A stretch of 61,305 bases of DNA, the filler included. It is 12 parts of 12 records of this genome, joined end to end, with 100 filler letters (N's around TTAATTAATTAA, not from the genome) between each part and the next. Parts side by side here need not be neighbours in the genome. Positions count along the whole stretch, not along the records: positions 8,514 to 12,724 come from SRR15195285_8443; 11 more parts are not named here. One strand, written 5' to 3'. The position numbers and the translations under genes are program-made. Shown in pieces: positions 11,501 through 12,417 of the stretch. Position 1 is the first letter of the stretch; the number at the start of each line of letters is the position of its first letter. The notes beneath the pieces were generated by a model. That model ran no database searches and was not told the DNA's origin. It worked only from the letters and a program-made list of their open reading frames with translations.

Positions 11501-12417
11501 CCAGAGGACTCTCGGACCAGATACTTCCTCGGAAGCCACTTGCCGTTCTCGACCTGGATCCAACTTTCAGTCTCACGCTGCGCATAGTGAACAGAATCAT
11601 TCCTTGCCGCGACTGGCTTTTGATCCTCATCCTCACCGCGATCGTCATAATCTGGACTGTCGCGATAAAATAAGTCGTGAGCAATGAAATGTGGCACACT
11701 GACTCGAAAGACGGCATTGCTTCGCGTGCCAAAGTCAAACTGTTTCGTACGCTTGCCGTGGCTAACCGTGAGCGATCCACCACTAGCAGCGGCTGGGAGA
11801 ACTACTACCATAGTGCCGAACGTGGGTAAACCGCGGTGGGTCTCGGGCAGTCGTTCGTTCACTCCGAAGCTGGAGCCTCCCGGTTCATTCAGCACAGCCT
11901 TGCGCAACTCGAAGCTAACGTCCCCGGCGGCGCATCCCAGCGTCGAGGCGGTCCTTCGAATCAGTGCCTTGAGTTTGACGTTCCACTGCGGGTTGCGGAA
12001 ACTCAGCTGGCGCGGCTGCAGCTCCCAGGAGCACCCCGTTGAGTCCGCGGGGGAGCGTTCTGCCACGCGTTTGAGCGTGGCAGCGTCGTGCTCGCGGATC
12101 GGCAGGCTCACGGGCCCGACTCCCAAAACGTGCAGACCTGGCAGACCCGGCATTTCCACCGCCGCCCCGCCGTCCGCGAACTCGCCGACGCGTGCGCTAC
12201 TTGCAAGTGCTTTGACCAAGAGCTCACGCACGTCATCGGCCTCGTCGTCCGGAGCTCCGGTGTAGCTGTCTGAGCGGCGCAGTGGCTGAGTGGAGCCGTA
12301 AGAGCTCTTGACCCCGCCAGTTAGCGGTGCCCCTGAGCCTACCGTGCGCGTGCCAAGTTGCCTCCGGGGCTTGCGGGCTCCCGTGCTCTTGCGCGCGGTT
12401 TGCTTTGTGCGCGCCAT
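8514..12417 (-). CDS. Histone H3-tail / degenerate 2OG-Fe(II) oxygenase fusion with SH3-like, ZZ-like and Tudor-like modules; 3' truncated in poly-Q
   Basis: Begins [13 protein letters not shown]...APLTGGVK with no histone fold. Followed by PGL.V.GVG.V.LP, SWEL.P.Q.SF.NP.W, FGTMVVVLP..ASGG.L.V.H and V.SGYRLALVY.L motifs of the fungal/oomycete 2OG-FeII_Oxy_3-type family. Cys cluster CDGC..HSCTFCDLDACHACY; GAKVEYFSRSANRWIPC. Confidence 0.8.

Follow-up and report, generated by a model that had tools for sequence, protein, structure and literature searches.

A single long reading frame opens with a copy of the histone H3 tail

The DNA analyzed here (hereafter, the window; 61,305 nucleotides, G+C of 56%) consists of 12 contigs of 3.1-8.4 kb joined by N44-TTAATTAATTAA-N44 spacers, and genes on different contigs are not neighbors. 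The sole gene of the 4.2-kb contig at positions 8514-12724 is an open reading frame (ORF) on the minus strand (8514..12417), as are all features of its product given below. It runs unbroken for at least 1301 codons and ends, with no stop seen, in a CAG/Gln repeat at the contig edge. The encoded protein begins with a copy of the histone H3 tail, which is followed by a linker, by a prolyl-hydroxylase-like 2-oxoglutarate (2OG) oxygenase domain that appears to be catalytically dead, and by a C-terminal region with a putative zinc finger.

The tail copy (A1-K36, 12307..12414) is predicted to be disordered and is identical to H3 at 24 of 36 positions, residues 1-12 being perfect. When residues 1-50 were compared with all PDB chain sequences by phmmer, 135 distinct sequences matched at E<=1, and all 60 of those listed were histone H3 or H3 chimeras (best E 6.7e-10). 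The alignment was gapless, placing query residues 1-40 on H3 1-40, and the PDB matches stopped at H3 residue 40. Judged from this alignment, the resemblance to H3 cannot be due to chance. A sequence-only reading of the window had described the gapless 24/36 match to H3 1-36 with its perfect first 12 residues, the retention of K4, K9, S10 and K36, the replacement of K14, K18 and K23 by Arg and the loss of K27/S28, all of which was borne out on the minus strand. Besides K4, K9 and S10, the retained H3 residues include R8, P16, R17, P30 and T32-K36, and the stretches that are intact throughout are 1-12, 16-17, 19-20 and 32-36. S/G stands in place of K27/S28, and the codons at positions 14, 18 and 23 are CGC, AGG and CGC. 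Since CGC at R14 and R23 is three changes away from AAG, the tail was copied long ago and has since evolved in situ; it is no fresh paste of an H3 gene. Elsewhere in the window, we found no H3 gene and no second H3 tail.

Residues 38-56 (12250..12306) form a linker that is Ser/Thr-rich and then acidic (DDEADD). The claim that no histone fold follows the tail also held: Pfam assigned no family to the whole protein at E<=1, and a predicted structure showed a beta-helix from residue 57 onward instead of a histone fold.

The start codon (12415..12417, context acaATGg) is the first in-frame ATG after a stop approximately 100 codons upstream. No further in-frame Met occurs until residue 89, within the conserved domain (helix 57-73; invariant L67, L71, F80 and G84). 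Because Met89 falls inside this domain, M1 is the sole usable start, barring an unseen upstream exon. A Met-Ala N-terminus is a substrate of methionine aminopeptidase, and a free Ala1 is therefore expected. Thus, the proposal that the tail sits at the true N-terminus, where Ala1 can be exposed as in H3, was supported. The MARTK start also has the sequence features of the H3-imitating proteins termed H3TMs, namely a removable Met, a small first residue, Arg2 and Lys4.

We examined the joint between tail and body by aligning contigs from four public seawater runs to the 8514-12724 contig. A 210-base contig (X2) spanning 12144-12353 and a 190-base contig (X15) spanning 12247-12436 both crossed the tail/body boundary (12306/12307) with 0 differences, and with more than 31 bases on either side of it. 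These independent contigs bridge the joint, so an assembly chimera, a concern that had been raised for this locus, is disfavored. X15 is labeled as RNA-Seq of a metagenome; its RNA nature is only a guess, and we did not count it as evidence of expression. In X2, 9 of the 13 aligned records were >=99% alike, so the source organism or a near-identical strain is present in seawater samples. Other seawater records matched 12383-12417 only and then diverged (loose ends at 12380 and 12420), as would be expected of ordinary H3 genes from other organisms. G+C at third codon positions (GC3) was 0.73 in the tail, and the joint showed no compositional break; over the first 200 codons (11818-12417) GC3 was 0.70-0.79, versus 0.48-0.60 afterwards, a compositional gradient at the 5' side of the ORF.

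The body is a prolyl-hydroxylase-type domain that has lost its iron site

Residues 57-352 (11362..12249) were predicted to form a PF13640-like, prolyl-hydroxylase-type double-stranded beta-helix. The AlphaFold model, built with a 64-sequence alignment (A3), had a mean predicted local distance difference test score (pLDDT) of 71.0 and a predicted template modeling score (pTM) of 0.64; pLDDT exceeded 90 in the core of this domain, and residues 1-53 and 234-284 were disordered (pLDDT <50). With Foldseek, no PDB entry reached E<=1e-3; the top entries were the Pseudomonas putida prolyl-4-hydroxylase 4iw3, at E 6.1e-3 with a probability of 0.98, and a 2OG oxygenase from Burkholderia. VIA-align of residues 75-352 against 48,161 chains placed 6n1f_A at the top (Z 11.6, root-mean-square deviation 4.0, 160 residues aligned), followed by 9qn0 (Z 10.7), the P. 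putida enzyme 4iw3_A (Z 10.5), the viral collagen prolyl hydroxylase (vCPH) 5c5t and the Trichoplax prolyl hydroxylase domain (PHD) protein 6f0w (both Z 10.2), Tpa1 (Z 9.8), PHD2 (Z 9.2) and the inactive N-terminal domain of vaccinia C16 (8ag3, Z 9.0). It was from these matches that we assigned the fold. The domain is interrupted by a lineage-specific disordered insertion of approximately 50 residues (234-284, 11566..11718), and is followed by a family-specific alpha/beta extension of approximately 290 residues (353-640, 10498..11361) with an LEHPNF motif and a degenerate TGNEG motif.

No Pfam family was assigned to residues 40-406 even at E<=10. The family was recognized through its relatives. 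Residues 1-700, used as the query of a word-indexed search, returned 12 hits, 11 of which carried a precomputed PF13640 (2OG-FeII_Oxy_3) annotation. HMMER against 1.84 billion representatives gave 2296 matches at E<=1e-3, of which 523 reached E<=1e-10 and 7 reached E<=1e-30; the closest relative, P0014, matched with E 1.2e-84, and the other listed matches ranged from 1e-35 to 1e-16. When 16 relatives were scanned, six passed the PF13640 cut-off (P0041, P0087, P0054, P0058, P0122 and P0156). A PDB profile search with A3 found no solved structure for this subfamily, the matches being spurious helical ones at E>=0.006.

The iron site was compared across the family with phmmer, which aligned the domains of 168 proteins in 174 rows. 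Four key columns read H-D-H-R in 134 of the 174 rows; the window protein reads N(E)/L/Q/R. At the HxD site (11848..11862), the family motif PHRDT is replaced by VNERL (PHRDTEK by VNERLPE in longer context), so that the His corresponds to N187 or E188, depending on the aligner, and the Asp to L190. Q327 (11437..11439) occupies the position of the distal iron-binding His, where the family reads DCEHEV and the window protein GAEQKL. R337 (11407..11409), aligned to the invariant family Arg that binds 2-oxoglutarate, is retained. Thus, according to this alignment, all three iron ligands are replaced and the domain is catalytically dead. P0014, which is 63% identical to the window protein, shares both the degenerate first motif (FGVDDSVP) and the insertion. 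Approximately 25 further rows of the alignment have one or more iron ligands replaced, so that the chemistry has been lost repeatedly in this oxygenase family. The sequence-only reading had missed that the body of the protein is, as judged by its residues, a dead prolyl-hydroxylase-like 2OG oxygenase and that the tail is tied to that family.

Five other family members carry the H3 tail

Motif searches and BLAST over the 162 listed relatives identified five with an H3 tail, four of them N-terminal and one internal. The N-terminal cases are P0002, an 'uncharacterized protein' of 719 residues from Clytia hemisphaerica, encoded on a 259-kb contig and with a tail segment of 25 letters; P0016 (406 residues), with a segment of 19; P0019 (423 residues), with a tail of 36 residues that continues into a RRFRPGAVALRAIR segment; and P0067 (472 residues), with a tail of 37. 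In P0041 (1483 residues), a near-perfect H3 2-34 segment lies internally at residues 1024-1056, and a KAARKSVP motif stands directly before the oxygenase domain; Pfam places FHA at 36-111, SET at 274-388 and 2OG-FeII_Oxy_3 at 591-678. This protein (also P0164 and P0165) was found on several marine contigs of up to 16.5 kb. P0016, P0019 and P0067 nearly fill their contigs of 1.4-1.6 kb and P0041 is a single 4452-base ORF, so that tail and domain are contiguous in the DNA in these four. We also considered whether a second oxygenase module follows the internal tail of P0041 and rejected this; residues 1059-1483 match only their own cluster.

All five tailed relatives keep H-D-H-R, and by these residues their oxygenase domains look active. 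Across the six tails, the sole invariant stretch is QTARKSTG (H3 residues 5-12, the K9/S10 motif), and five of the six proteins have an acidic tract after the tail. Tail lengths differ (about 19, 24, 36, 37 and 57 residues). The tails of P0019, P0067 and P0041 are approximately 90% identical to one another, and their enzyme domains only 32-38%. The Lys-to-Arg changes of the window tail do not recur in the other tails, which have Arg at K14 in none of five, at K18 in none of five and at K23 in one of five. An acetylation resistance brought about by selection, as had been proposed, is therefore unsupported. The broader proposal that the tail was selected and did not decay fared better: the perfect residues 1-12, the preserved frame and the same architecture in five other proteins are in its favor, and it is the Lys-to-Arg pattern as a selected feature that was not supported.

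No H4-like motifs were found in the 168 collected relatives. Two metagenome scans for orthologues with flanking DNA gave 112 and 472 pattern matches, none of which was confirmed.

Two side observations concern other members of the family. P0015 (1050 residues) contains, beside a complete oxygenase module, the beginning of another one at residues 955-1049, truncated at its C-terminal end. Many Asn/Lys-rich members (P0018, P0022, P0031, P0045, P0108, P0114, P0126, P0138, P0142 and others) have, ahead of the domain, a basic KRK-type start, a KEN-like motif (NKEN or DKEN) and an acidic tract; by their motifs, such N-termini may combine an import signal with a cell-cycle degron.

Tail bearers are scattered over the family tree

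In a FastTree phylogeny of 158 domain rows, the six tail bearers required six changes. In an IQ-TREE phylogeny of 48 rows, five changes were needed, at least four of which were forced by well-supported branches, and the approximately unbiased (AU) test rejected a tree uniting the tail bearers (difference in log-likelihood 150.8, p 1e-4). On these domain trees, the tail bearers are not one clade. Many of the listed relatives are metagenome fragments cut at the N-terminus, so absence of the tail is often uninformative. The trees would therefore fit either several gains of the tail or an ancient tail that was often lost. Several gains are also suggested by the differing tail lengths (from about 19 to 57 residues) and by the one internal position. 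If the tail is ancient, an identity of approximately 90% would have been held among the tails of the three proteins compared above while their domains fell to 32-38%. Either reading of its origin implies that the oxygenase family and the H3 tail are functionally linked in a specific way.

A weakly assigned zinc finger lies in the C-terminal region

Toward the C-terminus, a Lys/Glu/Arg-rich, charged helical stretch precedes a zinc-finger segment. The Cys-rich finger (9397..9525; C965-x2-C-x12-C-x2-C-x4-C-x2-C ... H1007) is weakly assigned to the ZZ/C1 type. Six Cys within residues 965-1007 fit the ZZ spacing, and the final His pair is incomplete. All six PDB hits of the C-terminal 442 residues were ZZ domains, at weak E values of 0.12-1.9 (HERC2, BIG and KCMF1), the HERC2 match at E 0.12 being an H3-linked crystal construct. 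The nearest named ESM Atlas clusters of the finger were of mixed C1_2/KKT2-3/ZZ type (0.92). Pfam found nothing in the C-terminal pieces at E<=10, and residues 930-1240 had no homologues at E<=0.01 (protein lengths 715-2277). A single-sequence AlphaFold model of residues 925-1246 had a pLDDT of 53.8, too low to inform on the finger, and a predicted complex of the finger segment (945-1015, with 2 Zn) and the tail (2-45) was uninformative (score 0.02, mark 0.34). The ZZ domains of HERC2 and ZZZ3 are described as reading the free H3 N-terminus (PMC7757301, PMC6138639). By analogy, a ZZ-like finger might cap the protein's own Ala1, which we offer as a lead only. Further downstream, residues 1160-1194 (8836..8940) form a beta-rich segment with three predicted strands (pLDDT ~70, single sequence), which in this model may be a small barrel.

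The gene belongs to an uncultured marine eukaryote

On another contig of the window, an Rpb1 fragment (27695-31567, plus strand) was 96, 88, 81 and 78% identical to its closest records, which come from metagenomes and a EukProt single-cell-type assembly. The identity then fell to approximately 52% for plants, fungi and amoebozoans alike, indicating an uncultured marine eukaryote without close sequenced relatives. The H3-tailed protein is the product of a real gene of this organism.

The four closest Rpb1 matches lacked a Pfam annotation of the C-terminal domain repeat (PF05001), and one relative (P0169, 1563 residues) ends without heptads, which may be due to its being cut by its 6.4-kb contig. 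Elsewhere in the window, an ORF at 47413-49821 (plus strand) contains a Vint/Hint domain (PF14623, E 7.6e-8) and one at 53730-55682 (minus strand) a RING finger (PF13639, E 1.3e-8). Of nine long ORFs scanned in the window, six had no Pfam family at E<=1e-5.

A proposed tethered stand-in for the H3 tail

The reading that we favor, to which we would give about an even chance, is that the copied tail takes the place of a genuine H3 tail, tethered in cis to a non-catalytic scaffold. Once Met is removed, the chain opens with a 36-residue copy of the H3 tail, followed by an acidic linker and a dead oxygenase-like domain. The conserved stretch from K4 to S10, above all QTARKSTG, would be engaged by the cell's writers and readers of H3K9/S10 (and K4). 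That residues 5-12 are so strictly conserved speaks for the machinery acting on K9/S10 (methyltransferases, chromodomain readers, a mitotic kinase) more than for acetylation. Alternatively or additionally, the peptide groove of the oxygenase-like domain might hold the protein's own tail as a built-in substrate or pseudosubstrate. In the catalytically intact relatives, the tail could couple the oxygenase to H3-tail signaling or auto-regulate it; there it might serve as substrate or pseudosubstrate, or recruit the oxygenase to complexes that bind H3. Since the chemistry is lost, only a scaffold role can remain in the window protein, which would then be a non-enzymatic adaptor or decoy whose partners are set by the modification state of its own tail. 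The N-terminal domain of vaccinia C16 provides a precedent for a dead fold of this kind serving as a binding module, and the "decoy or recruitment module" put forward by the sequence-only reading is, on the sequence, plausible.

A bolder proposal, which we hold to be possible but doubtful, extends this reading to the whole family. The PF13640-like proteins might be unrecognized enzymes directed at H3 tails, hydroxylating either the tail or tail-bound proteins, and separate lineages might independently have wired in the tail as a substrate or pseudosubstrate. The window protein would then be a dead descendant that serves as an adaptor presenting or reading H3 tails.

Several observations weigh against the tethered stand-in. 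Residues 13-31 of the window tail are substantially altered, including the loss of K27/S28, and the tail is present in only five of the 162 listed relatives. P0014, the closest relative, was called without a tail, as a 247-residue fragment, and the evidence on whether orthologues lack the tail, a point raised with the original proposal, is mixed. P0028, whose domain is 76% identical to that of P0019, starts with a Met of its own and lacks the tail, from which it follows that the tail is dispensable for the family. Chromatin domains are not a general feature of the long relatives, 15 of the 16 scanned having PF13640 only or nothing significant and P0041 (FHA and SET) being the sole exception. 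In the AlphaFold model, the tail (pLDDT ~40) docked nowhere, a result that speaks neither for nor against a pseudosubstrate role. Finally, the 3' end of the gene is missing, and the gene stands alone on a 4.2-kb contig.

Other explanations of the tail have to be weighed against the stand-in reading. The tail might be an address label only, giving access to the histone import route into the nucleus with no chromatin signaling; we consider this unlikely. H3 residues 1-28 are a nuclear import signal, and the H3 tail serves histones as an import and chaperone signal. In keeping with such a role, many tail-less eukaryotic members begin with a short basic stretch (MSKRK..., MLKRK..., MKRVK...) and then, in the same place ahead of the domain, have an acidic tract; the site thus commonly holds a basic element resembling a nuclear localization signal, and the Lys-to-Arg changes of the window tail preserve charge. 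However, a generic basic signal needs neither 12/12 identity to H3 nor a QTARKSTG stretch that is invariant in 6/6 tails, and it would not account for 33-36 near-perfect H3 residues in P0019, P0067 and P0041 despite domains that are 32-38% identical, or for the position of the P0041 tail, which is internal (residue 1024 of 1483) in a SET-containing protein. The tail could also be a neutral leftover of exon capture, in which a 5' piece of an H3 gene was fused by rearrangement and has been decaying since. The 12 substitutions in 36 residues, lying mid-tail, and the missing K27/S28 would agree with this, as would the variable tail lengths and the scatter of the bearers on the tree, which repeated accidental captures would produce. 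Yet the decay is uneven: the four intact stretches listed above survive, the frame and start are kept, and the multi-step codon changes (CGC at 14 and 23) speak for long residence. Repeated capture by one enzyme family, each time just before the same domain and with an acidic linker, is not what neutral fusion would be expected to yield, and we find this explanation quite improbable.

It is still harder to accept that the gene belongs to a giant virus or mobile element binned with the protist, the tail being a viral histone mimic directed against the host. The solitary position of the gene on its 4.2-kb contig would allow this, but in G+C and codon use the gene agrees with the window's other contigs, one of which carries the Pol II Rpb1 gene (52% identical to plant, fungal and amoebozoan Rpb1), and its relatives include the Clytia nuclear gene on a 259-kb contig. 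Moreover, two scans of 2.9 million viral contigs yielded no family member: the P0016 query found none, and alignment A4 found only L001, a generic phage-type hydroxylase of 193 residues without a tail. Least credible of all is an artefact, whether an assembly chimera of H3 with an unrelated gene or a wrongly chosen start. The contig is short, the assembly is fragmented, and the first 35 bases are matched by H3 genes of other organisms (the loose ends at 12380 and 12420). Against this, the joint is crossed without a single difference by the two contigs of other runs. The 12 positions at which the tail departs from canonical H3 show that no H3 gene was pasted in, five further proteins have the same architecture, and the conserved domain is preceded by no second in-frame ATG.

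Relation to known systems

Known histone mimicry consists of motifs of 4-6 residues, mostly in viruses and in a few animal proteins; here, nearly the whole modifiable H3 tail is present. It has been joined repeatedly to one uncharacterized oxygenase family, in a marine protist, a cnidarian and uncultured eukaryotes, and once together with a SET domain. By the logic of domain fusion, this is the first functional clue for the oxygenase family, and it points to chromatin. An enzyme that depends on oxygen or 2-oxoglutarate might act on or through H3 tails, an idea that the Clytia member makes testable in a laboratory animal. In open-access papers and bioRxiv, including a survey of eukaryotic chromatin proteins, we found no description of a natural fusion of an H3 tail and an oxygenase.

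The oxygenase-like domain shares its double-stranded beta-helix (Z 9-11.6) and its 2OG-binding Arg with the P. putida enzyme PPHD (4iw3), PHD2 and vCPH. Unlike active PHD-type oxygenases, it lacks the His-x-Asp...His triad and has a 50-residue insertion and an extension of approximately 290 residues. Like the N-terminal domain of vaccinia C16 (8ag3), it combines a PHD-like fold with the absence of a metal site.

Histone-like segments acting in cis are also familiar, since the autoregulatory loop of Clr4 and the automethylation loop of PRC2 occupy or regulate SET enzymes. P0041, with SET, KAARKS and a full H3 tail in one chain, is comparable in having a histone-like peptide in cis. The host in Clr4 and PRC2 is a methyltransferase, whereas here it is a prolyl-hydroxylase-like oxygenase, which the tail might occupy.

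Short histone-mimic motifs occur in influenza NS1 and at the automethylation site of G9a. A short internal mimic has also been described for SARS-CoV-2 ORF8 (bioRxiv 10.1101/2021.11.10.468057). In these cases, an ARKS/ARTK-like motif, as is also present in the window tail, sits on a non-histone protein and engages writers or readers of histones. The motifs in NS1, ORF8 and G9a are 4-6 residues long, mostly viral and internal, whereas the window protein is cellular and carries a whole tail at its N-terminus.

A cellular parallel is provided by the H3TMs such as VRK1, which are described as non-histone proteins that imitate A1-R2-T3-K4 of H3 after removal of Met, are bound by PHD-finger and Tudor readers and can be methylated in vitro by H3K4 methyltransferases (PMC8166343). 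PAF15 has likewise been grouped with H3 N-terminal mimics (bioRxiv 10.1101/2025.03.15.641049). Like the window protein, H3TMs and PAF15 have a cellular, non-histone N-terminus that imitates H3 once Met is removed. As they are presented in these reports, H3TMs imitate approximately four residues, whereas the window protein imitates 36, including the contexts of K9/S10 and K36, and its tail is bound up with a single enzyme family and turns up again in distantly related eukaryotes.

The logic proposed here has a designed version in CHARM (Neumann et al. 2024, PMC11875203), a fusion of an engineered H3 tail with DNMT3L by which a chromatin enzyme is recruited and released; the contribution of the tail in CHARM is questioned by a 2026 preprint (10.64898/2026.09.24.753995). 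Both place an H3 tail on a non-histone protein, and CHARM, unlike the gene in the window, is synthetic. The H3-tailed oxygenase-like proteins may thus be a natural counterpart to engineered tail fusions of this kind.

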